A stretch of DNA of 64,000 bases from an uncultured delta proteobacterium. GTDB taxonomy: Bacteria; Desulfobacterota; Syntrophia; Syntrophales; Smithellaceae. A model generated the notes under the pieces. That model ran no database searches, was not told the DNA's origin, and worked only from the letters and a program-made list of their open reading frames with translations. Numbering within the stretch: the first letter of the stretch is position 1; each line of letters opens with the position of its first letter. The position numbers and the translations under genes are program-made. This document shows positions 1,096 to 63,954 of this stretch, piece by piece. The stretch covers positions 1,538 to 65,537 of the forward strand of contig CAIVQG010000022.1 in the NCBI GenBank assembly GCA_903907985.1, written 5' to 3'.

Positions 1096-1186
1096 CTTTA
1101 ATTAGTCCCCTAAAAAATCTTTGTTCAATTTTGCATTGCCTAGATTATGCCAGTATGTTAGGACTCGCGCAAGAGGAGATTTAATT

Positions 1187-2425: not shown

Positions 2426-2430
2426 TCGAG

Positions 2431-3664: not shown

Positions 3665-3719
3665 AATTTGGGAAATAGGTCAAGAAGGCAACGTAAAGTT
3701 TTAAAATGGCATTACAAAA

Positions 3720-4040: not shown

Positions 4041-4043
4041 ATC

Positions 4044-5678
4044 TTATGCTACATCCAGGATCAAGGACTCATCATCAATTAGCAGGATCGTTTCCGTGCC
4101 TCTTGATATTTCCATATTCTGCTCTGCTTTCTGTTCTTTAATTTCCTGATGGGCAGAAGCCGGTAGATAAATATTGAAAGTAGAACCTTGTCCTTTTTCG
4201 GAATAAACGTTGATAAACCCATTATGGTTTTTGATAATTCCATAAACGGAGGCTAGTCCCAGTCCGGCTCCCCGTCCCATCTCCTTGGTAGTGAAAAACG
4301 GTTCAAAGATTCGTTCTTTTGTCTTTTCATCCATACCGACGCCGGTATCGGTTATGGAGATCTTTACATAACGACCATTTTTGCCATTGTAATCTTTAAA
4401 CATTTTTTCTTCGAGAATGATATTGGACGTTCTCAAATAGAGGTCACCACCTCCCGGCATAGCCTGCCAGGCATTCACATAAAGATTGAGCAATACCTGA
4501 TCGATTTGCCCCGAATCAACGTCTGTCAGCCATAAATCATTGGCGAGGTTGTGGTGAATCGTGATTTCTTTCTTGGTACGACCAATTGTTTCCGACGTCC
4601 TGCATATTAATGAATTAATGTCTGCTGTTTTTACTTCGTATTTGCCACCGCGGGCAAATCCCAATAATTGTTTAGTTAATTCCGCTCCGCTCATAACCAG
4701 TCCTTCGATGGTTCTCAGGTGTCCATGGATGGGAGACTGAGGATCCATCATTAAAAGGGCTAAGGAAGCGTGTCCTTGTATTCCCATGAGCAGGTTATTG
4801 AAATCATGAGCAATGCCGCCGGCAAGGGTGCCGATGGATTCCATCTTTTTTGCCTGCAATAGCCGAGCTTCTGTCTTTTTTTGGCTGGTTATATCGCGCA
4901 TGAAATTTAATATTGCCGGCTGATTATTCCAATTGATAACTACACTATTTGTTTCTGTCCAATGAGTGGAACCGTCTTTGTTAATGATCCGGAAGATGTA
5001 GTTATTTGTTGAGTCTTCTCCCTGCAGAGAGCTTTGTTGTCGCTCACAAACCATATTGCGATCCTCTTCCAGAATCAGCTGGAGAAAGGGAGTATTCAGT
5101 ATTTCCGGGAGATTATAACCAAGCATTTGGGGAAAACGCTTATTGGCGAAAGTTATCTTTTCTGACTGAATGATGAATATTGCTTCATTGGAGTTTTCGA
5201 TCAGCAGGCGGTATTTTTCTTCGGACCTCTGCAGGGCCTCTTCATTCTGCTTTCGGTCGGTGATGTCTTTGGACACAATAGCGACGGCAATATTATTTTG
5301 AGAATTTCCGTCTTTTCTTACCGGACTGAATGTTCGCAAAAAGTATTCTTTTGTATTCGGGCTATGATGTTCGTCCTGAATTGATTGCCCTGTATTAAAT
5401 ACTTGTTTAACTTTTTCAGCAAAGTCTTCACTTTGTTGAGGGGAATGAAAATCATTGTATGAGTAACCGACAATTTTTTCCGCAGGCAAATTTAAGCGCT
5501 GTAAATGGTTGTCATTGATGAAAATATAACGCCCCTTCTCATTAACGAGATAAAGGGAATCACTTGTGGAGTCGACAAGATAGCGGTATTGGTTTTCGGA
5601 TGTTTCCATCTGGTGGAGTCTAAGCTCTAAGTCTTTTATTCTTTGCCCGAGCTCTTTGTTGGTGAGGTTCTGTATCAT
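4044..5678 (-). CDS. PAS-domain sensor histidine kinase (hybrid type, ends inside its receiver domain)
   Basis: Coiled-coil N-terminus and two PAS-like segments. H-box GGIAHDFNNLLMGIQGH. HATPase motifs (NLYVNAWQAM, DTGVGM, GLGLASVYG). Ends with ILLIDDESLILDVA followed by TAA. Confidence 0.85.
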   Translation of the reverse strand: MIQNLTNKELGQRIKDLELRLHQMETSENQYRYLVDSTSDSLYLVNEKGRYIFINDNHLQRLNLPAEKIVGYSYNDFHSPQQSEDFAEKVKQVFNTGQSIQDEHHSPNTKEYFLRTFSPVRKDGNSQNNIAVAIVSKDITDRKQNEEALQRSEEKYRLLIENSNEAIFIIQSEKITFANKRFPQMLGYNLPEILNTPFLQLILEEDRNMVCERQQSSLQGEDSTNNYIFRIINKDGSTHWTETNSVVINWNNQPAILNFMRDITSQKKTEARLLQAKKMESIGTLAGGIAHDFNNLLMGIQGHASLALLMMDPQSPIHGHLRTIEGLVMSGAELTKQLLGFARGGKYEVKTADINSLICRTSETIGRTKKEITIHHNLANDLWLTDVDSGQIDQVLLNLYVNAWQAMPGGGDLYLRTSNIILEEKMFKDYNGKNGRYVKISITDTGVGMDEKTKERIFEPFFTTKEMGRGAGLGLASVYGIIKNHNGFINVYSEKGQGSTFNIYLPASAHQEIKEQKAEQNMEISRGTETILLIDDESLILDVA

Positions 5679-6230
5679 TCAGTCGCCATTGTTATGATTA
5701 AAAAGTAATTTTTTAAACTCAATGGAAAAAATTTCATAAGTTCGCCGGTCAAATAAAATATGGCGAATGAGCTCAATTCCGGTGTTTTCTCCCGCAAACT
5801 CAATACAGGTCTGAAGCGCCAGACGAGCTGCTTCAGCTATAGGGTAGCCGTAAACACCGCAACTTATAGCCGGAAAAGAAATACTTTGCAAACTATTTTC
5901 CGAGGCTAGTCTTAAGCTTTCGCGATAAGCACATTGCAAAAGTCTTGCTTCATCTTTTAATCCGCCGCGATAAATCGGGCCGACAGTATGAATAACGTAT
6001 CTAGCTTTGAGGTTGCCGCCGCTGGTAATGACGGCCTGACCCGTCGGACAGCTGCCTATTTTGCGGCATTCCTTCATAATTGCCAGGCCGCCAGCCCTGT
6101 GAATTGCTCCATCAACACCGGCACCACCAGCCAGGCGCGCATTAGCGGCATTTACTATGGCGGCAGTTGATTCTTCGGTAATGTCACCACACGCCAGTGC
6201 AATCAGAGTTTCATTAATTTTAGCTTCCAT
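5679..6230 (-). CDS. macro-domain protein (O-acetyl-ADP-ribose deacetylase, YmdB-like)
   Basis: GDITEESTAAIVNAANARLAGGAGVDGAIHRAGG..VIHTVGP..SISFPAISCGVYGYP. Confidence 0.85.
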   Translation of the reverse strand: MEAKINETLIALACGDITEESTAAIVNAANARLAGGAGVDGAIHRAGGLAIMKECRKIGSCPTGQAVITSGGNLKARYVIHTVGPIYRGGLKDEARLLQCAYRESLRLASENSLQSISFPAISCGVYGYPIAEAARLALQTCIEFAGENTGIELIRHILFDRRTYEIFSIEFKKLLFNHNNGD

Positions 6231-6236
6231 CAGAAT

Positions 6237-7823
6237 CTATGTTCCCTGGATTTTTGTTCCGTCTCCATATACAAGCATGCGGTATGTTTTTTCAATTCTA
6301 TCCCAGTTTCCCTCACGGTCCATTGACCAGTAGCGGCCAATTACCGAAACAACCTGTCCTATATTCAGCGATAAAGATTTTTCTTCAATTTTATTTATAT
6401 ATAGAGGACCACTTTCCGGCATTTCGCCGCGCCGTCCCAGCATGGAATGAATAAAAAGATTTTCAATTCCTTGGGCTTTGGCCATTTCCATTAGGGCAAA
6501 AAGGTGATTGATCGACCCATGAGAGCTGAAGAAAGAAACTATCCCGATCAGATGCAGCGCCTTGCTGGACTCTTTAGCTTTCCGCATCACACTTAAAAAA
6601 GCATCGTTCTGGTAAAAATATTTATTGGCAATGGCCTGGTCGATTTTAAACCGATCGGAATAAATTTTACGGCCGGCACCGATATGCAAATGTCCAGCCT
6701 CCGAATTACCTACGGTGCCAGCCGGTAATCCGACGGCTTCTCCTGCTGCCGCAAGCCGGGATGTGGGAAAGCAACCCATGAGCTTATCCATAACGGGTGT
6801 TTTGGCGCGGGAAATCAGATTGGCTTCTATGTTATCATTTAGTCCCCATCCATCGAGAATTATCAGTAACAATCTTTTTGTAGCTTCGCTTCCGGTCAGT
6901 TTTTGCGAAATCAATGATGAACCTGTCATCAAGGTGGATGGAGGTAAACCAAGAATATCCAAAACGGTCGGTGCCACATCAGTTAGCTCGCCTTCTTTGC
7001 GCAAAGTTAGTGCACTATTTTGGTGCACTAGAATAAAAGGCACAAGGCTGTCGGTATGTCCTGTATCCACGGCTCCATCCGGATAATACCATTTTTCTAC
7101 AGTGCCGTGATCGGCAGTAATAATTACTGCCATTTCTTTTTCCCGGGCATTCTCAATAATCATGCCGGCATGTTTGTCGACCGCCTCGACAGCCCGCAGA
7201 ATGGCGGCTTCGTTTTCAATATGGCCAACAACGTCCACATTAGGAAAATTAACAACGATAAAATTACAATTATCATCAGCAATTTTATCCATTGCTGCTT
7301 TCGCTATCTTTTCTATGGACATTTCCGGCGCTTCATCAAACTGGGCAACATCTTTTCTGGTCGGGACAACAATCCTTTCTTCTCCGGAAAAGAGCTCTTG
7401 CTTCTTTCCATTAAAGAAGAACCCTACATGCACTGCTTTTTCTGCTTCCGTAATTTTTGCCTGTTTCATTTTATGACGGGAAATAATTTCGCTTAACGTA
7501 TCTTGCAGTGTTTCCTCTGGCGGGAAAGCAACCTGGACGTTAAGCCCTTTTTGATATTCAATCATGGTGGCAAAATGCAGATTAAGATCAGGGGTAATAG
7601 GAAATTCAACGAAATTATCTTCTGTTAAGCTGCGGGTTAATTCGATTTCCCGCTCACCGCGAATATTGTAAAAAATGACACAGTCATCCTTGCCAATCCT
7701 GCCCGCGGGTTTACCTTGCAGGTTTGTAAAAATCAAAGGCAAAAGGGTTTCGTCTTCCTGTCCTTCTTTGTAAGCGCTGCGGACAGCTTCGGACATGGGG
7801 AAATTAAAATCTGAACTCATCAT
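6237..7823 (-). CDS. gpmI: 2,3-bisphosphoglycerate-independent phosphoglycerate mutase homologue with swapped (circularly permuted) segment order
   Basis: Contains LIILDGWG, GNSEAGHLHIGAGR, GRYWSMDREGNWDR, FYNIRGERE, NFPNVDVVGH, ITADHG and APTVLDILGLP. The canonical N-terminal block lies in the C-terminal half of the ORF. Confidence 0.8.
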   Translation of the reverse strand: MMSSDFNFPMSEAVRSAYKEGQEDETLLPLIFTNLQGKPAGRIGKDDCVIFYNIRGEREIELTRSLTEDNFVEFPITPDLNLHFATMIEYQKGLNVQVAFPPEETLQDTLSEIISRHKMKQAKITEAEKAVHVGFFFNGKKQELFSGEERIVVPTRKDVAQFDEAPEMSIEKIAKAAMDKIADDNCNFIVVNFPNVDVVGHIENEAAILRAVEAVDKHAGMIIENAREKEMAVIITADHGTVEKWYYPDGAVDTGHTDSLVPFILVHQNSALTLRKEGELTDVAPTVLDILGLPPSTLMTGSSLISQKLTGSEATKRLLLIILDGWGLNDNIEANLISRAKTPVMDKLMGCFPTSRLAAAGEAVGLPAGTVGNSEAGHLHIGAGRKIYSDRFKIDQAIANKYFYQNDAFLSVMRKAKESSKALHLIGIVSFFSSHGSINHLFALMEMAKAQGIENLFIHSMLGRRGEMPESGPLYINKIEEKSLSLNIGQVVSVIGRYWSMDREGNWDRIEKTYRMLVYGDGTKIQGT

Positions 7824-8000
7824 AACACCTATTAGGATAATTCGAATATTTATCGGTGGATGTATTTAGCGAAATAACAGAAAACTGTAAAGACAAACTT
7901 ACTGCCGGGCTGGAAATCTATTTATTTTATTCAGAAATGGAATAAGTTGAAAAGTAAGCTGTTAAATGATAGTGACTCGTGAAGCCTCTCCCGGAGAGTA

Positions 8001-8399
8001 ATGGTTATGCAATTGCCGCGATCACCAAGAGAAGAAAAACATGATACTCTATGTGAAGAGTTATTAAGAGAACGGGCAGCGGTGCTGGGCCGCGCAGGCA
8101 TGGCCGTAGAAGATGCCCTTGCTGAATTGACAAAATTAGATAACGAAATTAAAACAAAAAAAGAACAACTGAAATTATTGAAGCTTCGGGAGCAATGTCC
8201 TCATAGTCTGAATGAGCAACAGGCAGCCGTCGAAGAAATTAATGCGAAAATAGATCAATTCAACGCAGTTCGCAAGAAAGCTCAACTGAAATATTATTAT
8301 CTCATTGTCACCCGCGAAGCACTGGGTTTAAGGCGGCATGATATGATTAAGGAAATATACATAATTCCGGTAAAAAAGAAAAAGATACAGGATTTTTGA
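8001..8399 (+). CDS. hypothetical coiled-coil protein
   Basis: 132-aa ORF, Lys/Glu-rich heptad-like region. Stop overlaps the pcm start (ATGA-type overlap at 8396). Confidence 0.4.
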   Translation: MVMQLPRSPREEKHDTLCEELLRERAAVLGRAGMAVEDALAELTKLDNEIKTKKEQLKLLKLREQCPHSLNEQQAAVEEINAKIDQFNAVRKKAQLKYYYLIVTREALGLRRHDMIKEIYIIPVKKKKIQDF

Positions 8400-9052
8400 T
8401 GGATAGATATAGAAAACAGCGGGCACGAATGATAGAAACGCAGCTAATGGCGCGTGGCATAACTGATGCCGGTGTTTTAAAGGCCATGGAAAATGTGCCC
8501 CGTCATCTTTTTGTTGATGAAGGTCTAATTGATCAAGCATATAGCGACAATCCGCTGCCAATTGGTGAAAAACAGACGATCTCCCAGCCTTACATTGTAG
8601 CTCTCATGACGCAGGGGTTGGAATTGAATAGGAAGGACAGGGTGCTGGAAATTGGAACCGGCTCTGGTTATCAGGCGGCAATTCTGGCACAATTAGTCGA
8701 TCGCGTTTTTTCCATCGAACGTATTGCCGCGTTAGCTTCCCGGGCTCGCAAGATTTTTGATCAGCTCAATTATTATAATGTAGCCATCAGAGTTGGTGAT
8801 GGTTCCTATGGCTGGAAAGAAGAGGCTCCGTTTGACGCGATCATTACTACGGCTGCCGCGCCGGGAGTGCCAAAATATTTAATCGAACAGCTTGTTGTCG
8901 GAGGTCGGCTGATTGTTCCCGTCGGGGGACGAGATGTGCAGACTTTGTATAAATGGACGCGCCTTTCTGAAAATATCAATGACATCAAAAAAGAAGACCT
9001 GGGTGGTTGCCGCTTTGTGAGTTTGATTGGGGAGAGTGGATGGAAGGAATAG
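8396..9052 (+). CDS. pcm: protein-L-isoaspartate O-methyltransferase
   Basis: ISQPYIVALMTQ and VLEIGTGSGYQAAILAQL. Length 218 aa. Followed by an nlpD-like gene, as in the conserved pcm-nlpD arrangement. Confidence 0.9.
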   Translation: MMDRYRKQRARMIETQLMARGITDAGVLKAMENVPRHLFVDEGLIDQAYSDNPLPIGEKQTISQPYIVALMTQGLELNRKDRVLEIGTGSGYQAAILAQLVDRVFSIERIAALASRARKIFDQLNYYNVAIRVGDGSYGWKEEAPFDAIITTAAAPGVPKYLIEQLVVGGRLIVPVGGRDVQTLYKWTRLSENINDIKKEDLGGCRFVSLIGESGWKE

Positions 9053-10032
9053 GGCACAGTCTGGTTAAAAACACAATTCGTATCAGCAAACCATTCGTAT
9101 ATAGTTGCTTCGTATTATTAATCTTTGTTTTTCTTGCTTCCTGTTTGGCGCCTTCTTCCTATGTTCAAAAGGAACCGGCGAAAGGTGTTTATCATCGGGT
9201 AAAAAAAGGTGAAACATTTCGTGGCATTGCCCGTGCTTATGCTGTTAAAATACAGGATTTGGCCGAGGTAAACAATATCAGCAACCCCGGTCTAATCGAA
9301 GAAGGATCGGTTATTTTCATTCCTGATGCCAATCAGGTTATTGATGATGTTATTACTTCTGTAAAAAAAATAGATGCCGAAACAAAAACGGTGGCTAGGG
9401 CTGATAGCGCTGTAAAGGTTAAGCCGTCTCTGGAAAGCGAGAGTGGGAAAAAAGTCCGGAGCGCCACAGAAGACACCAGGGGTTCTGACAAAAAAGCATT
9501 ACTGCCTGCTGCTCCACAGGAAAAGGAGAAAATCGCCAGGTTGGTGCCAAGTGAAGACGTGTCGTCAACAGGACAAACTCCGGCGCGAAAGCCGGCGGAC
9601 GAAAAACTGGAACATAAAACTAAGTCAACTGGAGAAGAAAAAGAGGATATTCAATTTGAAAAAAAGCAATTTATTTGGCCGGTGCGCGGCAGTGTGAAAA
9701 CGCGCTTCGGGATTCAACCTAATAAAACTTATCACAATTGGGTAAAAATTGTTTCTGTCGCCGGAACTTCGGTTAAAGCCGCCGCATCAGGTATAGTTAT
9801 CTTTTCTGCGCAGTTAAAAGATTACGGCGAGACAATTATTGTCCGTCACGAAAACAGCTATGCTACTGTATATACGCATCTGAAGAAAAGATACGTTAAA
9901 ACTGATCAAAAAATTAAAAAAGGAGATGTAATTGCAATCATTGGAGAAACAGATGAAGCAGGCGATTCTTATATGAATTTTGAAGTGCGTCTGCATGGTA
10001 AAGCACGCAATCCTCTTTTTTTTCTACCTTAG
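9040..10032 (+). CDS. nlpD: NlpD-like lipoprotein (LysM + degenerate M23/LytM domain)
   Basis: Lipobox FLASC. LysM YHRVKKGETFRGIARAYAVKIQDLAEVNNI. C-terminal LytM fold (WPVRGSV..GDVIAIIGETD) in which the catalytic His motifs look degenerate (MNFEVR instead of LHFE). ATG 9040 preferred over 9007. Confidence 0.8.
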   Translation: MEGIGHSLVKNTIRISKPFVYSCFVLLIFVFLASCLAPSSYVQKEPAKGVYHRVKKGETFRGIARAYAVKIQDLAEVNNISNPGLIEEGSVIFIPDANQVIDDVITSVKKIDAETKTVARADSAVKVKPSLESESGKKVRSATEDTRGSDKKALLPAAPQEKEKIARLVPSEDVSSTGQTPARKPADEKLEHKTKSTGEEKEDIQFEKKQFIWPVRGSVKTRFGIQPNKTYHNWVKIVSVAGTSVKAAASGIVIFSAQLKDYGETIIVRHENSYATVYTHLKKRYVKTDQKIKKGDVIAIIGETDEAGDSYMNFEVRLHGKARNPLFFLP

Positions 10033-54010: not shown

Positions 54011-54359
54011 CAGGCTGTAGTCCGGGATAGCATTCCCCTTAGGGAGGCGCAATCAAATTAACTATCTTCCTTACCGGAAAAAACCTCAGGTTTTACAATG
54101 CCCTGATAACCTATAGATCACAAGAGGGCACGTGAAGGCTCATCTGCTGTTTATGACCTTTAGGGGAACGTGACCTTCTTCAGCTTCTTCCCTGCCTAAT
54201 CTTACCCCCTGTAATCTGAATCGCCTAAGCTTATGTTTAATCCGCTCATTAGCTGCATAGAGCAGAAAAAATATATGCGGTCATATTTAAATGATGAAAC
54301 TAATTGGCGATGAGCTTATAGTCAATTCTCTAAAGTTATCCCCGAACCAAGGATGTTTT

Positions 54360-56930
54360 ATGGAAATATCGGAACAGGATATTAAAAAGCTGCAAGGTTT
54401 GTCGGCTGCCGAAGCAGCGGAACGATTAAAAAAATGTGGATACAATGAACTGCCTTCTGCAAAAAAACGCAGCATAATCAAGATAATTATTGAAGTCTTC
54501 TGCGAGCCGATGTTTCTGCTGCTGGTTGCCTGCGGCACTTTGTATCTGATCCTCGGTGATGTTGGAGAAGCCTTGATGCTTCTGGGTTTTGTTCTCGTAA
54601 TCATCGGTATTACTATTTATCAGGAAAATAAAACGGAAAAAGCGCTTGATGCACTCAAAGATCTTTCAAGTCCGCGAGCCCTTGTTATCCGCGAAGGCTA
54701 TGAAAAACGCATCGCCGGTAAAGAAGTTGTCCCCGACGACCTGATCATTGTCCGGGAAGGCGACAGAATCCCCGCCGACGCCGTCCTGATTTGGGGCATG
54801 CACTTAACAGTTGATGAATCGCTGCTTACCGGAGAATCTGTGCCGGTGAGGAAAAAACCATCCCAACCGATTGATCAGGAAATTTCAAAGCCGGGAGGCG
54901 ACGATCTACCCTTCATCTACTCGGGCAGTCTCATAGTGCAGGGACAAGGCGTGGCCAGAGTGCTTTCTTGCGGCAGCAGTACGGAAATCGGTAAAATCGG
55001 GAAAGCCCTCTACGCGATTTCCGAAGAAAAAACCGCCTTGCAGAAGGAAACAGGAAAAATAGTTAAAACGGTTTTTATCTTTGCCGCTGTGCTCAGTTTA
55101 ATTATTATCTGTGTCTATGGAATAACCAGGGGCGACTGGTTAAATGGAATTCTGTCCGGTATCACGCTGGCCATGGCTATGCTGCCGGAAGAATTCCCCG
55201 TTGTCCTGACAATATTTTTAGCTCTTGGCGCCTGGCGTATGTCTAAAAAGCAGGTACTTACCCGGAAAGTTGCTGCCGTAGAAACTCTGGGAGCAGCGAC
55301 CGTTTTATGTGTGGATAAGACGGGAACATTAACGCAAAACAAGATGAGTATTAAAAAAATATTCAGTAAAAATGAATTATACGAAATTGTCGACAGCTCC
55401 ATTGACAGCCTCCCCGAAACATTTCATGAACTGATTGAATATGGAATCCTGGCCAGCAAAAAAGATCCCTTCGATCCCATGGAACGGGCGTTGCATGAGC
55501 TGGGCCACAAAACTCTCTACAGTACAGAACATCTTCACTCAAACTGGAATATACTGGAAGAGTATCCGCTATCGGGCGAGTTATTATCGTTATCCCATGC
55601 TTATAAACATCCGGAAACGGGGGCTTATTATGTATCCGCAAAGGGAGCTCCCGAGGCCATCTTTGATCTTTGCCATTTGAATAAGCCTGTCAGAGATGAT
55701 CTGGCGGTGAAAGTTAATGTTATTGCCGCGGAAGGATTGCGTGTCTTAGGTGTGGCCAAGGCTATATTTAATAAAAATAAGCTTCCCCAAAATCAGCATG
55801 ACTTTGAATTCGAGTTTCTGGGTTTAATCGGCCTTGCTGACCCGATTAGAGAATCTGTACCGGGCGCAATAAAGGAATGCTACCAGGCCGGAATTCGGGT
55901 TGTCATGATCACCGGTGATTATCCGGCTACTGCGCAAAACATTGCCCGCCAGATCGGATTGAAAAACATCGATCAGGTTATCAGCGGACCGGAGCTGTCC
56001 GCGATGGGGTCTCAGGAATTAAAAGATAAAGTCAGCGTGGTAAATATCTTTGCCCGTGTTGTTCCCGAGCAGAAGCTTTTACTGGTAAACGCTTTAAAAG
56101 AAAACGGGGAAATTGTAGCCATGACCGGAGATGGTGTGAATGATGCTCCGGCATTGAAGGCAGCTCATATTGGTGTGGCGATGGGGGAACGAGGAACGGA
56201 CGTGGCCAGGGAATCTTCAGCCATTGTTCTTCTGAAAGACGATTTTGCTTCGATCGTTGCGGCCGTGAGAATGGGGAGACGCATTTTCGATAACATGAGA
56301 AAAGCAATGGCTTATATCATCAGTGTGCATATTCCTATTGCCGGTATTTCTCTTATTCCGGTTTTATCAGGTTGGCCGGTAATTTTATATCCTGTTCACA
56401 TTTTATTTCTGGAGCTGATTATTGATCCGGCCTGCTCTGTTGTATTTGAACAGGAAAAAGAAGAAGCAAATACTATGCTGCGAGCACCGCGGGATTCCGC
56501 CGAACCTCTTTTCGGAAAACGGCTTTTGTTTTTGAGCATTCTACAAGGTCTGTTTTCTCTGGCGGTTATTATTGCTGTATATAAAATAGCTCTTAATTTA
56601 AATCAGTCTGCTGCTGAAGCAAGGACGCTGTCATTTTTAACACTGATCATCTCCAACTTATGCCTTATACTGACCAATCGAAGCTGGTCGATGAGCATCC
56701 TCTCTTCCCTATTTGTTCCTAATAAGGCTTTGAAATGGGTAATTCTGGGGGCTATTCTTTTTCTGGGATTGGTAATCTATGTGCCGTTTTTGCAGAGGAT
56801 GTTCCATTTTGCGGCGATGCATAGCCTTGATATTATTATTGCTACCATCACAGGATTTTTAAGTGTAGCCTGGTTTGAAATTGTAAAAATTATGTCTGTT
56901 AAAAAACATGTTGAACTACTGAATGATTAA
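54360..56930 (+). CDS. cation-translocating P-type ATPase (type II, Ca2+/Mg2+-like)
   Basis: LTGESVPV, CVDKTGTLTQN, MITGDYPATA and TGDGVNDAPALK. About 10 TM helices. ATG 54360 (MEISEQDIKKL) preferred. Confidence 0.9.
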   Translation: MEISEQDIKKLQGLSAAEAAERLKKCGYNELPSAKKRSIIKIIIEVFCEPMFLLLVACGTLYLILGDVGEALMLLGFVLVIIGITIYQENKTEKALDALKDLSSPRALVIREGYEKRIAGKEVVPDDLIIVREGDRIPADAVLIWGMHLTVDESLLTGESVPVRKKPSQPIDQEISKPGGDDLPFIYSGSLIVQGQGVARVLSCGSSTEIGKIGKALYAISEEKTALQKETGKIVKTVFIFAAVLSLIIICVYGITRGDWLNGILSGITLAMAMLPEEFPVVLTIFLALGAWRMSKKQVLTRKVAAVETLGAATVLCVDKTGTLTQNKMSIKKIFSKNELYEIVDSSIDSLPETFHELIEYGILASKKDPFDPMERALHELGHKTLYSTEHLHSNWNILEEYPLSGELLSLSHAYKHPETGAYYVSAKGAPEAIFDLCHLNKPVRDDLAVKVNVIAAEGLRVLGVAKAIFNKNKLPQNQHDFEFEFLGLIGLADPIRESVPGAIKECYQAGIRVVMITGDYPATAQNIARQIGLKNIDQVISGPELSAMGSQELKDKVSVVNIFARVVPEQKLLLVNALKENGEIVAMTGDGVNDAPALKAAHIGVAMGERGTDVARESSAIVLLKDDFASIVAAVRMGRRIFDNMRKAMAYIISVHIPIAGISLIPVLSGWPVILYPVHILFLELIIDPACSVVFEQEKEEANTMLRAPRDSAEPLFGKRLLFLSILQGLFSLAVIIAVYKIALNLNQSAAEARTLSFLTLIISNLCLILTNRSWSMSILSSLFVPNKALKWVILGAILFLGLVIYVPFLQRMFHFAAMHSLDIIIATITGFLSVAWFEIVKIMSVKKHVELLND

Positions 56931-56992
56931 CTGTCTTAACCGCAGAGTTCCGGTGATCAAAACTGGTTAATTAAAAATATTAAATTTATTTC

Positions 56993-57021
56993 TTGACAAG
57001 AATTTTAAGTTTGTTTATACG
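56993..57021 (+). promoter_or_regulatory. candidate promoter of the aro leader/operon
   Basis: TTGACA - 17 nt - TATACG. Confidence 0.35.
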
Positions 57022-57051
57022 GTAATACAATAAAAGGTAAGGTTTTTCACA

Positions 57052-57147
57052 ATGGACAGAAAATTAAATGCAAATATCGGTTTTTACGGCTATTGGTTTT
57101 ATACCTATTTTGCATCGGTCTGCCCGTTGTTAAGAAGGACGTGTTAA
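57052..57147 (+). CDS. putative aromatic-amino-acid-rich leader peptide (31 aa)
   Basis: MDRKLNANIGFYGYWFYTYFASVCPLLRRTC. Codons 11-20 are F Y G Y W F Y T Y F. AAGGTAAGG lies upstream. The ORF sits between a promoter candidate and tandem terminator hairpins, directly ahead of the shikimate operon. Confidence 0.6.
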   Translation: MDRKLNANIGFYGYWFYTYFASVCPLLRRTC

Positions 57148-57168
57148 GGTAAAACAAACACCAAAAAC

Positions 57169-57208
57169 AGCCATGGGTAGATCGGAAACGAGCTTCCATG
57201 GCTTTTTC
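57169..57208 (+). promoter_or_regulatory. attenuator hairpin 1 (arms 1 and 2)
   Basis: AGCCATGG (57169-57176) pairs with CCATGGCT (57196-57203), followed by TTTTT. Confidence 0.5.
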
Positions 57209-57216
57209 AGTTTTAA

Positions 57217-57256
57217 GGGCCATGGCGGCAAAAGCCATGGCCCTTTTTTTATTTTT
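57217..57256 (+). terminator. strong rho-independent terminator (arms 3 and 4) immediately before the aroF RBS
   Basis: GGGCCATGGC-GGCAAAA-GCCATGGCCC followed by TTTTTTTATTTTT. RBS AGGAGGGG at 57258-57265. Confidence 0.8.
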
Positions 57257-57269
57257 CAGGAGGGGAATT

Positions 57270-58280
57270 ATGATTATTGTAATGAAGAATCAAGCAACAG
57301 AGAAACAAATTGAAAATGTGATCCACTGGATTGAATCCGTCGGTTACAAAGCTCATCCGTCAAGCGGTGTGGAACGAACTATAATCGGAGCAATAGGCGA
57401 TAGCCGCGATAAATCAGTCCTCAAATATGCCGAATCTCTGCCGGGGGTTGATAAAATCATACCAATTTTAAAACCTTATAAATTGGCCAGCCGGGAATCA
57501 CATGAAGGCAATACAATCGTTTCCGTAGGCCAGATTCCCATTGGCGGTCCCCAATTCATAGTAATGGCCGGACCTTGTGCCATTGAAAGTGAAGAGCAAT
57601 TATTAGAAAGCGCTTATATTGTGAAAAAAGGTGGAGGCCAGATTTTGCGGGGAGGGGCTTACAAGCCGCGTACATCGCCTTACAGTTTCCAGGGGATGGA
57701 AGAGGAAGGCTTGAAACTGTTGGAGCAGGTACGCCTGCGGACAGGTATGCCTGTTGTTACCGAAGTAATTAATCCGGCTGATGTTGACCTTGTCGAATCA
57801 TATGCCGATATGCTGCAAATTGGCGCCCGCAATGTGCAAAATTTTGCTCTGCTCAAGAAGGTCGGCCAGTCGAGAAAGCCGGTGCTTCTAAAAAGAGGAA
57901 TGATGACAACAATTGAAGAATTGCTGATGTCGGCGGAATATATCCTGTCATCGGGCAATCCTAATGTAATCCTTTGTGAACGCGGCATCCGGACATTCGA
58001 AACGGCGACTCGCAACACACTGGATTTAAGTGCTGTGCCCGTATTGAAAAGCTTGACGCATTTGCCCGTTGTGGTTGATCCCAGCCATGCCGCCGGACAT
58101 TGGAAACTGGTCATTCCTTTGAGCCGTGCTGCAGTTGCTGTAGGCGCAGACGGTCTGATTGTCGAAGTGCATCCGCGGCCGGAGACGGCAGTCTCCGATG
58201 GAATGCAATCTTTAAAACCGGAAAAATTCTATCAGTTAATGGATGAATTAAGAAATATTGCTGCGGCAATGAGACACTAA
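57270..58280 (+). CDS. aroF: 3-deoxy-7-phosphoheptulonate (DAHP) synthase, type I-beta with N-terminal ferredoxin/ACT-like regulatory domain
   Basis: An N-terminal ~65-aa extra domain ([23 protein letters not shown]..), then [27 protein letters not shown] and VDPSHA. Confidence 0.9.
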
Positions 58281-58400: not shown

Positions 58401-59495
58401 ATGCGGTCAATAAAAGTCAATCTCGATAAAAAGTTATCATCATCTTACGAAATCTGTATCGGCAACGCTATTCTTGACCGGATGGTACTGCTTATTGCCA
58501 AAAACCATAAAGCCGGACGTCATATCGTTATTACCGACAGCAATGTCAATAAATTGCATGGTCCCAAGCTTCTTGCCGCACTCAAAGATGTTGGTCTCAA
58601 TGTCGATTTAATTGAATTTCCGGCCGGGGAAGCATCAAAGAATATCAACACGGCTGTTGATATTGCCGGAAAACTGCTCGAGTTGGGGGCTGGCAGGAAT
58701 TCGCTGCTCATTGCCTTTGGCGGTGGTGTGGTAGGTGATCTGACAGGATTTGTCGCTTCCATGTTTATGCGTTCCGTTCCTTATATTCAAATTCCCACTA
58801 CGTTGCTGGCACAGGTGGACAGCAGCATTGGCGGAAAAACAGCGGTTGACCTCCCTTATGGAAAAAATCTGCTGGGAACTTTTTATCAGCCGCAGGCAGT
58901 ATTTGCTGATTTGAGTTATCTTACAACTCTACCGGAAAATGAGTTTAATAACGGGTTGGCGGAAATTATCAAATATGGCATCATTGACGATGCAAAAATG
59001 TTTCGCCTGCTGGAAGATAATATGGATCAGGTAAAAATAAAAGACCCGGTGCTATTGTTAAAGCTTGTAGAAATGTGTTGCCGCATCAAGAAATCAATTG
59101 TCGAAATTGATGAAAAAGAGCAAGGCTTAAGGCGGATTCTCAATTACGGTCACACGCTGGGACATGCCCTCGAAGCGCAATCCAACTTCACTCTCTCGCA
59201 TGGTGAAGGTGTTGCTTTAGGTATGATTGCCGCGGCGCGAATTTCGGAAAATTCCGGCTATCTGGAATCATCCTCGCGGGAACGCATTGAAAAAATAATA
59301 CAGAAAGCGGGACTACCCTGCCGGATAAATAATAATATGGCAACAGAAGGAATAATTTCCCGGTTAAAAATGGATAAGAAAAAAGAAGGTGACATCATCC
59401 ATTTCGTTTTGCTCAAAAAAATAGGCATGCCGTTTGTTAACGGAGGTATCGATGGGAAAATTATCACACCCGTAATTGAAGGAATGAGAGAATGA
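58401..59495 (+). CDS. aroB: 3-dehydroquinate synthase
   Basis: GGGVVGDLTGFVAS, DSSIGGKTAV and NYGHTLGHALE. Confidence 0.95.
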   Translation: MRSIKVNLDKKLSSSYEICIGNAILDRMVLLIAKNHKAGRHIVITDSNVNKLHGPKLLAALKDVGLNVDLIEFPAGEASKNINTAVDIAGKLLELGAGRNSLLIAFGGGVVGDLTGFVASMFMRSVPYIQIPTTLLAQVDSSIGGKTAVDLPYGKNLLGTFYQPQAVFADLSYLTTLPENEFNNGLAEIIKYGIIDDAKMFRLLEDNMDQVKIKDPVLLLKLVEMCCRIKKSIVEIDEKEQGLRRILNYGHTLGHALEAQSNFTLSHGEGVALGMIAAARISENSGYLESSSRERIEKIIQKAGLPCRINNNMATEGIISRLKMDKKKEGDIIHFVLLKKIGMPFVNGGIDGKIITPVIEGMRE

Positions 59496-60571
59496 AATCA
59501 CGGCTGGAAAAATTAAGAGAAAACATGAGAGAGAAAGACAGGGAAATCATCCGTCTTTTAAATGAACGCTCGCAGATATCTGTCCGGATCGGTGAAGTTA
59601 AAGGCCGGGAAGGTTTGAATGTATATGATCCTTCCCAGGAAGCGAGAGTCTATGGCTACTTGCAGGAGCTCAATTGCGGGCCGCTGCCACCGCCGGCGAT
59701 CAATGCGATTTTCCGGGAGGTTATTTCGGCTTCCCGTGATTTGCAGAAGCCGACAACGGTTGCTTTTCTGGGACCGGATGCTTCGTTTTCTCATCTGGCG
59801 GCGCAATTGCATTTTGGTCAGTCCAGCCGCTTTGTTGCCCAGCCGGGAATTGCCCGTGTTTTTGATGAAGTGGAAAGAGGCTCCATCGATTGGGGTGTGG
59901 TTCCTGTGGAAAACTCGCAGGAAGGTTCTGTTAATATCACACTGGACCGGCTGGTTCTAACACCCTTGAGGATTCGTGCGGAAATATATCTGCGGATCAG
60001 CCAATCCCTGATTTCTTCTTCCAAAGACATGCGGAGGATTAAAAAAATATATTCACACCCCCAGGCATTAGCTCAGTGCCGGTCCTGGCTCAAGGCCAAT
60101 CTTCCTAACTGTGCGCTCTGCGAGGCGGAAAGTACTGCGGCCGCTGCGCAAATGATTAAAGGGAAAAAGACTCAAGGGGCGATAGGTAGTTGTCTTGCCG
60201 CGCAAGCCCACGGACTTCATATTCTGGCGGAAGACATCGAAGATAATACTTCCAACACAACGCGGTTTTTGATTATCGGTAACGGAGCGAGTACGGCAAC
60301 GGAAAAAGACAAGACGTCTTTGATTTTCGCCACACACCATTCCCCGGGGTCGCTGCATCTCGCGCTATCACCATTTGCTGCCCGCCGGATTAATTTGATC
60401 AAGATTGAATCGCATCCGGTTAAAGATAGGTTGTGGGAGTATCTCTTTTTTGTCGATATTGTCGGCCATGTTGAGGAGAAGGAAGTAAAAAATTGTCTGG
60501 AGGAACTGCAAGAGAAAACGACATTTTTAAAAATTCTGGGCTCCTACCCGAGAGCGGAAGGACCGTTATGA
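59492..60571 (+). CDS. pheA: bifunctional chorismate mutase / prephenate dehydratase
   Basis: N-terminal CM helix LRENMREKDREIIRLLNERSQIS. PDT VAFLGPDASFSHLAA and VPVENSQEGSV. ACT TSLIF..PGSLH..INLIKIESHP. Confidence 0.9.
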   Translation: MKSRLEKLRENMREKDREIIRLLNERSQISVRIGEVKGREGLNVYDPSQEARVYGYLQELNCGPLPPPAINAIFREVISASRDLQKPTTVAFLGPDASFSHLAAQLHFGQSSRFVAQPGIARVFDEVERGSIDWGVVPVENSQEGSVNITLDRLVLTPLRIRAEIYLRISQSLISSSKDMRRIKKIYSHPQALAQCRSWLKANLPNCALCEAESTAAAAQMIKGKKTQGAIGSCLAAQAHGLHILAEDIEDNTSNTTRFLIIGNGASTATEKDKTSLIFATHHSPGSLHLALSPFAARRINLIKIESHPVKDRLWEYLFFVDIVGHVEEKEVKNCLEELQEKTTFLKILGSYPRAEGPL

Positions 60572-62142
60572 TCTGCATACCCATTATAGCGATATCTCAT
60601 AAAGAAGCATTGCGTGATATCGAACGCAGTTGCCTGCTGGCCGATGCCATCGAACTCAGGATGGATTTGATTGCGGATGGCGCACTTCCCGAATTAATTT
60701 CCGCCGTGCGCCGCAATTCCAATACAGTTAGAATAATTGTCACCTGGCGAAAAAAAGAAGAAGCGGCGCAGACTGTTGAATCTCCCGAAGCCGGGGACCA
60801 GATCAAAGATCAAAAAGACAAAAAAATGGCGATGCTCAAACAGGCCATTGAGCTTGGCGCCGATTACATTGATATTGAACTCTCCGAAGGTAACGACGCC
60901 ATTGAGGAGTTAAAGTCTCATGGTGCAAAGATGGGCAGCTCGACAAAAATTATAATTTCTTATCACAATTTTCAAAGAACCCCTTCCCTGAACAGGCTGA
61001 AGGGAATATTTAATCAATGCCGGGAGTTTAAGCCGGCTGTTGTGAAAATAGTTACTTTCGCCCGGAAGCCGGAAGATAATTTGCCGGTGCTCAGTTTGAT
61101 ACCCTATGCCCGCAAACATTTGCAGGAAATAATTGCCTTGTGTATGGGGGATAAAGGCCGGATCAGCCGCGTGATGGCGCCCTTGCTGGGTAATTTTCTT
61201 AATTTTGCGACTTTGGAGCAGGGCACACAATCGGCGCCTGGTCAGCTGACTGCTTCCGAGATGAGGCAAATTAATAAACTAGTGAATGGTGATAAGACCA
61301 GTCAAAAGCATCAGGTATTATCGAGACAAGAGAGTCAACCCAGGAACTATATTTTATTGGGTAATCCGGTAGGGCAAAGTCTTTCGCCACTGATGCATAA
61401 TACGGCGCTCTGCGATCTGGGTATTGAAGGGCGATATAATGCGTTTTGCGTATATGATCTGGCGGCGGCGATACAGGGCATCAGGGGAATGGATGTTCGT
61501 GGTGCGAGTGTGACCATACCATTTAAATCTGCTGTGATGGAATATCTGGATGATATTTCCGCCGATGCAAGGAATATCGGAGCGGTAAATACGATTATCA
61601 ACAGCAATGGTCGCCTGACGGGCGTCAATACCGACTGGCGGGGATTGCTTGCTGCCCTGCGGGAAGCTATGACGATTAAAGGGAAAAAGTTTGTGATTAT
61701 CGGCGCCGGCGGCACAGCCAGGTCAGCGGCTTATGGAATAATTCAGGAAGGCGGATTTCCGGTAATTGTTAATCGCACGGCGGAAAAGGGTAAACTTCTG
61801 GCAGTCAAGTTCAACTGCCCGTTTTATGCGTTGGATGATATCGAAAAAATAGAGGCTGATTGTCTGATTAACACAACACCGGTGGGCATGTATCCTCATG
61901 TTGATAAATCGCCGGTAGATTCCGCTTCGCTTGCCGGCTATAAATACGTGATGGATGTTATCTATAATCCACTGGAAACAAAACTGCTGAAAGATGCCAG
62001 GCAGCGGGGCTGTCATGTTTTGCCGGGGTTGGATATGTTTGTGCATCAGGGCGCCGAGCAAATAAAACTATGGACCGGTCTTGATCCTAATCGGGCATTG
62101 ATGAAAAAAACAGTCAAGGAAAGGTTGGCCGAAGGTGAATAA
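60568..62142 (+). CDS. aroDE: fused type I 3-dehydroquinate dehydratase / shikimate 5-dehydrogenase
   Basis: N-terminal half MICIPI..ELRMDL..YIDIEL..ISYHNF..VKIVTFA. C-terminal half GNPVGQSLSPLMHN..GASVTIPFK..NTDW..IIGAGGTARS. ATGA overlap with the pheA stop. Confidence 0.9.
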   Translation: MICIPIIAISHKEALRDIERSCLLADAIELRMDLIADGALPELISAVRRNSNTVRIIVTWRKKEEAAQTVESPEAGDQIKDQKDKKMAMLKQAIELGADYIDIELSEGNDAIEELKSHGAKMGSSTKIIISYHNFQRTPSLNRLKGIFNQCREFKPAVVKIVTFARKPEDNLPVLSLIPYARKHLQEIIALCMGDKGRISRVMAPLLGNFLNFATLEQGTQSAPGQLTASEMRQINKLVNGDKTSQKHQVLSRQESQPRNYILLGNPVGQSLSPLMHNTALCDLGIEGRYNAFCVYDLAAAIQGIRGMDVRGASVTIPFKSAVMEYLDDISADARNIGAVNTIINSNGRLTGVNTDWRGLLAALREAMTIKGKKFVIIGAGGTARSAAYGIIQEGGFPVIVNRTAEKGKLLAVKFNCPFYALDDIEKIEADCLINTTPVGMYPHVDKSPVDSASLAGYKYVMDVIYNPLETKLLKDARQRGCHVLPGLDMFVHQGAEQIKLWTGLDPNRALMKKTVKERLAEGE

Positions 62143-63388
62143 AGAAGCAAATATTAAATCAGTTTCGGCAGCGATCCACATTCCCGGTTCCAAAAGTTTG
62201 ACCCAACGAGCTCTTGTGGCGGCGGCATTGGCCGAGGACAATTCTTTTATCGGCAATGCCCTTGTTGCCGAAGATACTCTCTATCTGATGGACGGATTGC
62301 GGGCATTGGGCGCGCAGATTGTTGCCGCCGACGGTGGTTTTTTTGTTTCGGGTACGGCGGGAAAAATTATCAATAGCTCAAAAGAAATCTTTCTGGGAAA
62401 CAATGGTACGGCGCTGCGTATTTTGGCTGCGCTGGTAACACTGGGCAGCGGTAAATATGTTTTAACCGGGGAGAAAAGGCTTTGTGAACGACCAGTCGGC
62501 CCGTTGGTCGAGGCGTTGCAGAGCATGAATGTGGATATTTTCTGCCGCAATAATTGTCCACCGGTGACTGTAAATGCCGCTGGGCTTACTGGTGGCAAAA
62601 TAGCATTGAAAGACATCGAAAGTTCGCAATATGTCTCCGCGCTGTTGCTTTGTGCGCCCTATACGAAAAAAGGTATTGATCTTTCTTTGCAGGGGGAAAT
62701 TGTTTCTGCGCCCTATATCGATTTGACCATTTCCATAATGCGTGATTTTGGCGCCAAGGTCAGCGAAACAGGTCAACATGAATATTCTGTTGAAGCCGGG
62801 AAAATTTACAAAGGACGCGACTATTTTATCGAAGGGGATGCCTCCAGTGCTTCCTACTTTTTTGAAGCTGCAGCCATTTTAAAAAAGCCAGTTCGAGTTA
62901 ATGGCATTGGGATAAGAAGCAAACAGGGCGATCTGCGATTGCTCCCGATCCTGGAAGAACTGGGCTGCAAGGTTTATTGCGGAGATACCTGGATAGAAGT
63001 GGCCTGTGACAATTTGCAAGAAGGCGACTTTACATTCGATTTAAATGATATGCCGGACATGGTGCCGACAATGGCAGTGCTTGCTGCTTTCCGCAAGGGG
63101 AAAACAGTAATTACTAATGTTGCTCACTTGCGGTTTAAGGAAAGCAATCGTCTAGACGCCTTGGCTACCCAATTAAAGCGTATTGGCATTGAAGCCTGCG
63201 AAACTGCGGATGGTATTATCGTATCGGGTGGTCGTCCTCATCCGGCAGTCATTGAAACTTACAATGATCATCGCATTGCCATGAGCTTTGCCGTTGCCTC
63301 GCTGGCTGTTCCCGGGATCGAAATATACGATAAAAAAAGTGTGGATAAATCTTTCCCGGGGTTCTGGGAGGAGTTAAAAAAGATATGA
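62135..63388 (+). CDS. aroA: 3-phosphoshikimate 1-carboxyvinyltransferase (EPSP synthase)
   Basis: PGSKSLTQRAL, LGNNGTALR, RPVGPLVEAL, KESNRL and DHRIAMSFAV. GTG start. Confidence 0.95.
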   Translation: MNKEANIKSVSAAIHIPGSKSLTQRALVAAALAEDNSFIGNALVAEDTLYLMDGLRALGAQIVAADGGFFVSGTAGKIINSSKEIFLGNNGTALRILAALVTLGSGKYVLTGEKRLCERPVGPLVEALQSMNVDIFCRNNCPPVTVNAAGLTGGKIALKDIESSQYVSALLLCAPYTKKGIDLSLQGEIVSAPYIDLTISIMRDFGAKVSETGQHEYSVEAGKIYKGRDYFIEGDASSASYFFEAAAILKKPVRVNGIGIRSKQGDLRLLPILEELGCKVYCGDTWIEVACDNLQEGDFTFDLNDMPDMVPTMAVLAAFRKGKTVITNVAHLRFKESNRLDALATQLKRIGIEACETADGIIVSGGRPHPAVIETYNDHRIAMSFAVASLAVPGIEIYDKKSVDKSFPGFWEELKKI

Positions 63389-63954
63389 AAGTGATTCTGG
63401 TCGGCTATCGGGCCTGCGGAAAATCCACGGTGGGGAAGCTGCTGGCTGCTAAATTAAAAATTCCCTTTCGGGATTCAGATTTGCTGGTGGAGGAGAGCCT
63501 GGGTTTGTCCATAAAAGAAATTGTGGCCGGCTACGGGTGGGACTATTTTCGTACCCGGGAAAAAGAAGCAATTCAACAGACAGCGCTAAAAGGGGCATGC
63601 GTTCTGGCAACCGGTGGTGGTGCGGTTCTGTCCGAAGAAAACGTTGATTTGCTCAAAAAGATGGGTGTTGTCATCTGGCTTGCCGCTCCCCTTACGGATA
63701 TTATTGAACGGCTGGAAGCCGATGCTGAAGTCCAGGGAACACGCCCGCAATTTACAGCCGACAGCCTGGTTGAAGAAACCACGGCGGTGTTGCAGCAGCG
63801 CATTTCTTTGTATGAAAAAGCTGCCGATTATTCTCAGGATACAGCAGGCAAAAGCGCTCCACAAGTGGCGGAAAATATTTATCAGCATTTGCTGGAATCC
63901 GGCATTCTGGCAAAAATTAATAAATGTAAAAATAAATCTGGTATAAACTTATAG
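63385..63954 (+). CDS. aroK: shikimate kinase
   Basis: ILVGYRACGKSTVGKLLA, FRDSD and LATGGGAVL. Confidence 0.9.
   Translation: MKVILVGYRACGKSTVGKLLAAKLKIPFRDSDLLVEESLGLSIKEIVAGYGWDYFRTREKEAIQQTALKGACVLATGGGAVLSEENVDLLKKMGVVIWLAAPLTDIIERLEADAEVQGTRPQFTADSLVEETTAVLQQRISLYEKAADYSQDTAGKSAPQVAENIYQHLLESGILAKINKCKNKSGINL

Follow-up and report, generated by a model that had tools for sequence, protein, structure and literature searches.

A candidate leader-peptide attenuator with two successive terminators ahead of the shikimate operon in Syntrophales

In the his attenuator of Salmonella and Escherichia coli, six RNA segments pair either as A:B, C:D and E:F or as B:C and D:E, and a stalled ribosome flips the register of the whole chain, which holds the single terminator E:F. 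The thr and ilv leaders of E. coli are multivalent, with Thr/Ile or Leu/Val/Ile codons in one leader peptide, and in the trp attenuator the terminator is more stable than the antiterminator and the outcome is kinetic. An element of this general kind was analysed here in a 64-kb stretch of DNA, which is called the window and to which all window coordinates refer. The element, named the aro leader below, lies directly upstream of the DAHP synthase gene that opens a shikimate (aro) operon, and it is very probably a ribosome-mediated (leader-peptide) transcription attenuator of the aroF-aroB-pheA-aroDE-aroA-aroK operon. The whole case is comparative and computational, and the regulation of the aro operon is what we infer from it.

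The E. coli trp (trpL) and pheA (pheL) attenuators consist of a short leader with end-product codons and of helices 1:2, 2:3 and 3:4, among which the position of the ribosome selects (PMC11802643). The aro leader shares with them a putatively translated leader, end-product codons, alternative helices and an intrinsic terminator, and it is closest to trp, regions 1 to 4 of which correspond to its segments 0 to 3, the chain being extended in the manner of his. Unlike trp and pheA, with which no sequence or covariance-model similarity was found, the aro leader has its regulatory codons in the loop of the first hairpin and the 5' strand of its antiterminator inside the open reading frame (ORF), upstream of the stop codon; it would read three amino acids, and it has two successive terminators, apparently linked by a relay. 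It resembles the his attenuator in its six neighbour-pairing segments, but its middle hairpin (2:3) is also followed by a conserved U-run and hence looks like a terminator, and the sensed amino acids and the lineage differ. As in thr and ilv, codons for several amino acids of a branched pathway are mixed in one leader, although those read here are Phe, Tyr and Trp and the position is upstream of the common shikimate pathway and pheA.

Two leaders upstream of aroF genes were also compared. In Corynebacterium glutamicum the aroR leader (Phe-Tyr-Phe) is described as controlling aroF, with more read-through at Phe limitation (Neshat et al. 2014, as summarised in PMC11802643). The likeness to this aromatic leader peptide ahead of a DAHP synthase gene is functional and drawn from its description; as summarised there, aroR belongs to an actinobacterium and has only three regulatory codons and no Trp, and tandem terminators are not among the features reported in that summary. 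The uORFC-13-1 motif of Acholeplasma is a predicted Phe-rich upstream ORF beside an intrinsic terminator 5' of aroF (PMC8632094); it comes from another phylum, is a different motif and a prediction, and was not among the Rfam matches for the region. The original prediction for this DNA had called a leader for all three aromatic amino acids ahead of the shikimate genes an unusual configuration; given the precedents in C. glutamicum and Acholeplasma, it is less unusual than that. In full-text literature no description of leader-peptide attenuation in Syntrophus or delta-proteobacteria was found, and no paper describing the aro leader. The attenuation surveys of Lyubetsky, Seliverstov and colleagues reportedly cover delta-proteobacteria and may include this element. 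The aro leader is thus apparently an undescribed and unannotated example of a well-known mechanism, in which a mixed aromatic leader for a whole shikimate operon, two relay-coupled terminators and the reuse of the scaffold with other sensing codons are noteworthy.

Conserved elements of the aro leader

Scanning genomes with the DAHP synthase gave 80 loci with identity from 97% to 74%, in which the homologues align from residue 1. All 80 came from Smithella, Smithellaceae, Syntrophaceae or Syntrophales genomes, so the window derives from a Smithella-like member of Thermodesulfobacteriota. The promoter, the aromatic-rich small ORF and both hairpins were found together in 76 of the 80 loci, and the contig breaks off in three of the remaining four. 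The equivalent ORF lies at the same distance upstream of the gene and has 6-9 aromatic residues in 10 (at least 7 in 70 of the 76). These 76 leaders formed the comparative set (alignment A1, loci numbered in the style of L004), and the alignment revealed covariation in the hairpin arms in addition to the kept aromatic run. The P-type ATPase gene that precedes the leader in the window occupies this position in only 1 of the 80 loci, while aroB follows in 77 and pheA in 72, which assigns the element to the aro operon and not to the upstream gene.

All elements of the leader described here lie on the forward (+) strand. The leader ORF (57052-57147, stop codon at 57145) was verified by direct reading and in the ORF list, and its 31 codons read MDRKLNANIGFYGYWFYTYFASVCPLLRRTC. 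The codon run F Y G Y W F Y T Y F (codons 11-20, 57082-57111) contains 3 Phe, 4 Tyr and 1 Trp, that is, 8 aromatic codons out of 10. No other stretch of 10 codons in the six frames of the window has 8 or more aromatic ones, and none of 20 shuffles reached 8. A shortage of charged tRNA-Phe, -Tyr or -Trp is proposed to stall the ribosome on this run. Of the 76 leaders, 75 contain Phe, 73 Tyr and 67 Trp, with means of 2.9, 3.8 and 1.2 codons per leader. The proposal that all three aromatic amino acids are sensed needs qualification in that Phe and Tyr dominate and Trp is usually single and not present in every leader. The nucleotides of the run vary (TAT/TAC, TTT/TTC, with frequent synonymous and F-to-Y swaps), while the ATG and the frame are kept and indels in the aromatic part are multiples of 3. 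These changes indicated that the leader ORF is translated. In 72 of 76 leaders the gap between the last aromatic codon and segment 1 is 5 nt (57 leaders) or 8 nt (15 leaders), and the stop codon begins 10 or 13 nt past segment 1 in 66 of 76. The N-terminal half of the peptide is variable, and its ..VCPSLRR.. tail and length are conserved in most relatives.

Upstream of the ORF, a sigma-70-type promoter was located at 56993-57021, with the -35 hexamer TTGACA (56993-56998), a 17-nt spacer and the -10 hexamer TATACG (57016-57021), from which transcription would start near 57028. A generic promoter scan missed it because the -10 hexamer ends in G. In 72 of 76 leaders TTGACA was present without change, followed after 16-18 nt by a -10-like hexamer and placed at a conserved distance from segment 1; this distance was 115-136 nt in 74 of the 76, with outliers of 146 and 160 nt. 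The purine-rich motif GGTAAGG (57036-57042), 9 nt upstream of the ATG, would serve as the Shine-Dalgarno sequence of the leader ORF, and relatives carry AAGGACAGG or GGAG-type motifs at this position (A1).

Six segments follow from the leader start to the DAHP synthase gene. Segment 0, GUUUUUCACAAUGGACAGA (57042-57060), covers the spacer, the start codon and the first leader codons, and in minimum free energy (MFE) folds without a ribosome its partner is segment 1 together with the 3' extension of segment 1. In this folding model it is the counterpart of region 1 of the trp attenuator and would also sequester the start site of the leader. Relatives show compensatory changes (AUGCA/UGCAU, ACGCA/UGCGU, AUGUA/UACAU, GUGGGA/UCCCAU) in the inner stem of the 0:1 hairpin (57068-57074 with 57109-57115), which has the aromatic codons in its apical part. 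Segment 1, GGUCUGCCCGUUGUU (57117-57131, with the feature extending to 57140), is the 5' strand of the proposed antiterminator and lies inside the ORF (codons V23-L27), starting 5 nt after the last aromatic codon in the window. Segment 2, AGCCAUGGGUAGAUC (57169-57183), includes the 5' arm of hairpin A plus 3' bases and is the partner of segment 1. Segment 3, GAGCUUCCAUGGCU (57190-57203, with UUUUU to 57208), a near direct repeat of segment 1, is the 3' arm of hairpin A, which together with the U-run forms terminator T1. Segment 4, AAGGGCCAUGGC (57215-57226), is the 5' arm of hairpin B and the alternative partner of segment 3, and with segment 5, GCCAUGGCCCUU (57234-57256, including the U-run T7AT5), it forms terminator T2, a 12-bp stem with a 7-nt loop that was flagged by the terminator scan.

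The four CCATGG arms from which the original prediction started are contained in these segments: AGCCATGG (57169-57176) in segment 2, CCATGGCT (57196-57203, followed by T5) in segment 3, GGGCCATGGC (57217-57226) in segment 4 and GCCATGGCCC (57234-57243, followed by T7AT5) in segment 5. They account for 4 of the 21 CCATGG sites of the window, within 70 nt. These arms, the promoter, the 31-codon ORF, its run of 8 aromatic codons in 10 and the ribosome-binding site (RBS) of the DAHP synthase gene were all recovered at their predicted positions by direct reading of 56700-57500. The uniqueness of the aromatic run, the crowding of CCATGG sites, the folding energy given below and the conservation in 76 loci show that the arrangement did not arise by chance.

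It was segment 1, and not the aromatic run, that proved to be the most conserved stretch of the ORF, with the pattern GGUCUGCCC(A/G)U(C/U)G(C/U)U encoding ..VCPSL.. in most leaders. It is nearly invariant at the nucleotide level, third codon positions included. L004, L006 and L007 carry an extra T and read the same nucleotides of segment 1 in another frame (..FCIGLPV..; ..FCIGLPVDEEDLLR), and the common Pro-to-Leu change is a C to U change that keeps a G-U pair. From the shifted frames, the fixed third positions and the pairing-neutral change it follows that segment 1 is conserved as RNA and not as peptide.

Two exclusive pairing states and the proposed mechanism

The segments pair only with their neighbours, and they form an alternating chain with two mutually exclusive states: a terminating state with helices 0:1, 2:3 and 4:5, and a read-through state with helices 1:2 and 3:4. 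Conservation of the pairings was compared with a slid control, in which helix partners were shifted along the alignment, and with a shuffle control. The shuffle control has little to say on helices 1:2 and 3:4, since their columns are nearly invariant, which also accounts for their weak shuffle statistics; slid controls and the paralogous classes described below were used for them instead. In the terminating state 94.5% of cells were paired, compared with 22-55% with slid partners, and its 57 compensatory cells were reached in 0 of 500 shuffles. Helix 0:1 was 76.8% paired (slid controls 34-46%) with 92 double-change cells against 47.5 in shuffles, helix 2:3 was 98.4% paired with compensatory changes, and helix 4:5 was 94% paired with compensatory changes in 6 of its pairs. 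An unbiased RNAalifold run returned exactly the T1 and T2 hairpins, and the U-runs behind them are conserved, with 5 or more T among the 8 nt that follow the T1 stem in 74 of 76 leaders and 6 or more among the 10 nt that follow the T2 stem in 67 of 76. These are the two successive terminator-like hairpins proposed earlier.

The read-through state was 90.2% paired, compared with 33-42% in slid controls. Helix 1:2 covers 15 positions, 87% paired over the 76 sequences with one invariant C-C mismatch (slid controls 33-42%), and its mean duplex energy of -23.9 kcal/mol is far lower than the -11.6 +/- 2.8 kcal/mol obtained with shuffled segment 1 and comparable to the mean of -20.1 kcal/mol for hairpin A. 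Helix 3:4, which is the alternative pairing of the second with the third CCATGG arm in the original prediction (57196-57204 with 57217-57225), was 95.2% paired against at most 42% in slid controls. How the position of the ribosome could be coupled to the helices had been left as a caveat there. The missing link is supplied by segment 1, since 57117-57131 pairs with 57169-57183 in competition with hairpin A.

Folding calculations agreed with a chain of this kind. The 246-nt leader folds at -76.5 kcal/mol, compared with -55.4 +/- 4.1 kcal/mol for shuffles (z = -5.1), and the duplex energies in the window are -13.7 (0:1), -22.3 (1:2), -19.7 (2:3), -16.1 (3:4) and -25.6 kcal/mol (4:5). As the transcript is lengthened, its MFE fold alternates between the exclusive states: 1:2 for a transcript ending at 57190, 0:1 with 2:3 at 57204, 1:2 with 3:4 at 57232, and 0:1 with 2:3 and 4:5 at 57250. 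Helix 1:2 is the MFE structure whenever segment 0 is absent or masked. In folds masked for two ribosomes, of which one was stalled at Tyr17 and the other occupied the start site, helix 1:2 persisted and T1 was absent; with a ribosome over codon 27 both T1 and T2 formed.

Based on these pairings, we infer a mechanism with three situations. If the leader is not translated, 0:1, 2:3 and 4:5 would form, and transcription would terminate at T1, with T2 as a backup and with 0:1 also hiding the leader start. If aromatic amino acids are plentiful, the ribosome would cross segment 1 to the stop codon at 57145 and come to rest where helix 1:2 would have its loop. Hairpin A could then form once segment 3 is made, and T1 and T2 would terminate. 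If charged tRNA-Phe, -Tyr or -Trp is scarce, the ribosome would stall in the F/Y/W run (57082-57111), which lies within the 0:1 hairpin loop and a short way 5' of segment 1, and leave segment 1 free. The free segment 1 would then pair with segment 2 as the antiterminator and block T1, and the released segment 3 would capture segment 4 before segment 5 is made, by which T2 would be blocked kinetically and the polymerase could enter the operon. The bypass of T2 must be kinetic in this scheme because T2 wins at equilibrium. Such a scheme offers a testable model of the control of aromatic amino acid synthesis in uncultured or hard-to-grow syntrophs (Smithella, Syntrophus and relatives), for which, to our knowledge, no regulator of this synthesis is known. 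With it, classical attenuation would reach a further lineage as well as the common shikimate pathway, and a multivalent aromatic leader would join the known multivalent Thr/Ile and Leu/Val/Ile leaders. In sum, the original claim of a leader-peptide attenuator of the aro operon gained support from the conservation of ORF, aromatic run, hairpins, U-runs and promoter across Syntrophales.

Several observations weigh against this interpretation. T2 forms at equilibrium even in the antiterminated state (4:5 -25.6 compared with 3:4 -16.1 kcal/mol), so that read-through of T2 depends on the kinetic argument. In the window, a ribosome at the stop codon overlaps segment 1 by no more than its last ~2 nt, and masking would thus come from timing and steric exclusion from the loop rather than from direct coverage. 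The leader has a weak Shine-Dalgarno sequence, 9-10 nt from the ATG. The covariation in 1:2 and 3:4 is almost all one-sided and wobble-compatible, and helix 3:4 has a central mismatch in 12 of the 76 leaders. Furthermore, hairpin B lacks a U-run in about 6 leaders, and L065 has no T2 at all, T1 being its only terminator before the gene.

The stability of T2, the mismatch in 12 leaders and the lack of T2 in L065 also speak for the best surviving alternative, in which only T1 is controlled by the ribosome and T2 is a constitutive partial terminator or insulator or answers a separate input. The complementarity of 3:4 would then be a by-product of the duplication of T1, and indeed segments 2 and 4, as well as 3 and 5, are near-repeats that share the palindrome and would obtain this complementarity for free. 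This alternative is nevertheless unlikely. If T2 were strong and constitutive, an essential biosynthetic operon would be shut off, and the pairing of 3:4 is kept at 95% across the 76 leaders. Three groups of scaffold copies outside this set are also difficult to reconcile with it. In L104, L151, L152 and L197, a class found in metagenomes, no U-run follows hairpin A and hairpin B alone is a terminator; the signal must therefore pass through 3:4 there. In L203 the palindrome is lost, as CCAUGG is replaced by CCGUGG in segments 2 and 4 and by CCACGG in segments 3 and 5, with CCCAU changed to CCCAC in segment 1, and 3:4 is still perfectly complementary; the neighbour helices 1:2, 2:3, 3:4 and 4:5 were kept (-18.8 to -25.0 kcal/mol), in contrast to 2:4 and 3:5, which fell to -8.7 and -12.0 kcal/mol. 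In copies with Trp-type leaders, segment 4 has changed from C to U and can still form a G-U pair with segment 3, with a compensating change in segment 5. Taken together, these results suggested that T2 is probably controlled through the 3:4 relay.

A switch driven by a ligand, by uncharged tRNA in the manner of a T-box or by an RNA-binding protein in the manner of TRAP, with an incidental small ORF, was also considered. The sequences GGUCUGCC, GCCAUGGG and CCCAUGGC are highly conserved across operons and could in principle be a binding site, but neighbour pairing accounts for all of the conserved bases. The ORF, moreover, keeps its ATG, its frame (indels in threes) and its aromatic codons while the nucleotides vary, and the identity of the codons shifts with the downstream pathway, with F/Y/W codons in aro and W codons in trp leaders. 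A cmscan of 56850-57400 against Rfam at E up to 10 gave only sub-threshold, unrelated matches, mostly small RNAs and microRNAs on the two hairpins, with none to the T-box model or to known riboswitches. Such a switch is therefore very improbable. At the same threshold no covariance-model match to the known Rfam amino-acid leaders (Trp, Phe, His, Leu, Thr) was obtained either, and these, the riboswitches and the T-box, for which the conserved bases are in any case explained by neighbour pairing, were rejected as assignments.

Least credible of all is a functional aromatic-rich small peptide, for example a membrane peptide, beside ordinary terminators or stabilisers, because the conserved length and ..VCPSLRR.. 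tail that favour it are outweighed by a variable N-terminal half, by frame-shifted versions in which the same nucleotides give unrelated tails (CIGLPVDEEDLLR), and by two terminators and alternative pairings reaching into the ORF, which are unexpected for a simple peptide gene. Conservation of ..VCPSLRR.. as an arrest peptide was rejected on the basis of the frame shift in L004, L006 and L007, the invariant third positions and the Pro-to-Leu change that keeps pairing. Selection on the CCATGG palindrome itself was rejected because L203 lost the palindrome and kept all neighbour pairings, and a role of the hairpins as terminators of the upstream ATPase gene was rejected because the upstream gene differs in 79 of the 80 loci.

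Scaffold copies with other sensing codons

Metagenomes were scanned with an exact pattern of segment 1, segment 2 and segment 3 in order, and at least 120 loci were returned. Among the matches listed, at least 57 were F/Y/W leaders upstream of the same DAHP synthase, at least about 20 combined the same scaffold with Trp-only leaders, and at least 4 had F/Y leaders upstream of a gene for a GNAT-domain protein of ~520-525 aa; the remaining listed matches look like chance hits in GC-rich coding DNA. Within the window, a relaxed pattern search revealed no second copy of the scaffold.

The Trp-only leaders fell into two types. Leaders of the first type (..NWWCWEKK..EVCP..; for example MKSIFGLEMNGWWCWEKKVVEVCPVPV) precede a TrpD-type gene and were found in L085, L101, L134, L145, L149, L153, L172, L183, L192 and L198, as well as at L201:2190-2500 and L202:2190-2500. 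Their scaffold reads GGTCTGCC.., GCCATGGG.. and CCCATGGCC with a T-run, followed by a GGCTATGG/CCATAGCC terminator. In some of these loci the TrpD-type gene is followed by further trp genes, namely trpE and trpG in L202 and trpE in L198. Leaders of the second type (..GWWWWANISAGVCPS; for example MAGLAHKTLLGWWWWANISAGVCPS) have the same scaffold and precede a gene for an outer-membrane channel of the Phenol_MetA_deg family (PF13557) in L087, L105, L113, L141, L146, L166 and L191. Under Trp attenuation, this channel may serve Trp- or indole-related uptake. The GNAT-domain protein is conserved and occurs in association with aromatic genes. It has an F/Y leader of its own (for example MDRSGHDRFFGRFFYYRFELGSA) in L104, L151, L152 and L197, and its gene also occurs at L203:8115-9671 and L202:590-2167, between pheA and the trp attenuator. 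In L104 a gene for an ADP-forming acyl-CoA synthetase follows that of the GNAT-domain protein.

Two leaders of different type were found 9 kb apart on one NCBI contig of a MAG, L203 (GCA_040961635.1). The F/Y/W leader MDQLRNFNFSSGYYFWFYYAEVCPLLLADR (527-800) lies upstream of a shikimate operon (genes 793-9671), the first two genes of which encode enzymes of the archaeal AroA'/AroB' type, with a DeoC family gene (PF01791) and then DHQS (PF01959) in place of DAHP synthase and aroB, and a GWWCW leader lies upstream of trpD. Judged from this arrangement, the attenuator would follow the pathway rather than a particular gene. The sensing codons likewise track the pathway, with F/Y/W for aro and W for trp, as predicted by a device that reads codons.

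Considering these copies, we lean slightly towards a so far undescribed attenuator family of Syntrophales and other Thermodesulfobacteriota, the members of which would share a chassis of GGUCUGCC..., GCCAUGGG..., CCCAUGGC with a U-run and a second hairpin, with the sensing codons swapped between operons and with tandem relay-coupled terminators as a distinct design that tightens the off state. If so, the family would show in nature how attenuators evolve through duplication and the reprogramming of codons, and it would provide synthetic biology with a modular part ready for use. Two operons on one contig that share the chassis and differ in their exchangeable sensing codons would make a clean natural experiment on attenuator evolution. 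The alignment could also seed a new RNA family for annotation, as such leaders are now left unannotated or called as spurious small genes. At L201:2278-2472 and L204:1553-1747, public annotations place a hypothetical gene of 64 aa over the trp leader and attenuator; the call in L201 is one such case, and these calls are probably annotation artefacts arising from the unrecognised leader.

Operon context and minor variants

In the window, the leader is preceded by the P-type ATPase gene (54291-56930, identified by Pfam scan). In the stretch 56931-56992, between the end of this gene (56930) and the aro promoter, the terminator scan detected no terminator-like site, and transcription that continues past the end of the ATPase gene would enter the attenuator. 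Downstream, the RBS AGGAGGGG of the DAHP synthase gene (57258-57265) was read directly ahead of the ATG at 57270. The DAHP synthase gene (57270-58280), first in the operon, encodes an N-terminal ferredoxin-like regulatory domain and a DAHP_synth_1 domain (Pfam). It is followed on the same + strand by aroB (58401-59495), pheA (59492-60571; chorismate mutase, prephenate dehydratase and ACT domain), an aroD-aroE fusion (60493-62142), aroA (62135-63388) and aroK (63385-63954), all identified by Pfam scan, so that the part of the operon visible in the window after DAHP synthase extends over 58401..63954.

A few relatives depart from the common arrangement. The same aro operon without the leader was seen at L034:2330-2750 and L035:2580-3000 (Syntrophaceae/Smithella), where DAHP synthase directly follows another ORF ending in ..FYEGLTEVEVED, and control must differ there. 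In L051, L061, L064 and L069 an extra 100-150 nt separates hairpin B from the DAHP synthase start, and in L061 and L064 this stretch holds further GC-rich inverted repeats. The clade of L048, L063, L071, L074, L075 and L079 has a diverged hairpin B (CCTGG/CCGGG cores; A1 columns 236-280) without a U-run after it, and only T1 looks like a terminator in these leaders.

A further conserved motif is the Shine-Dalgarno-like GAGGAGGAC, found just past segment 1 and 5-10 nt upstream of the leader stop, which in the window is GAAGGAC at 57134-57140 (within 57133-57140). GAAGGAC pairs with GUUUUUC at 57042-57048, upstream of the leader ATG. In L006 and L007 the GAGGAGGAC stretch is read as Glu-Glu-Asp and not as Arg-Arg-Thr, which indicated conservation as RNA, and it might, speculatively, hold the terminating ribosome through an anti-Shine-Dalgarno contact.

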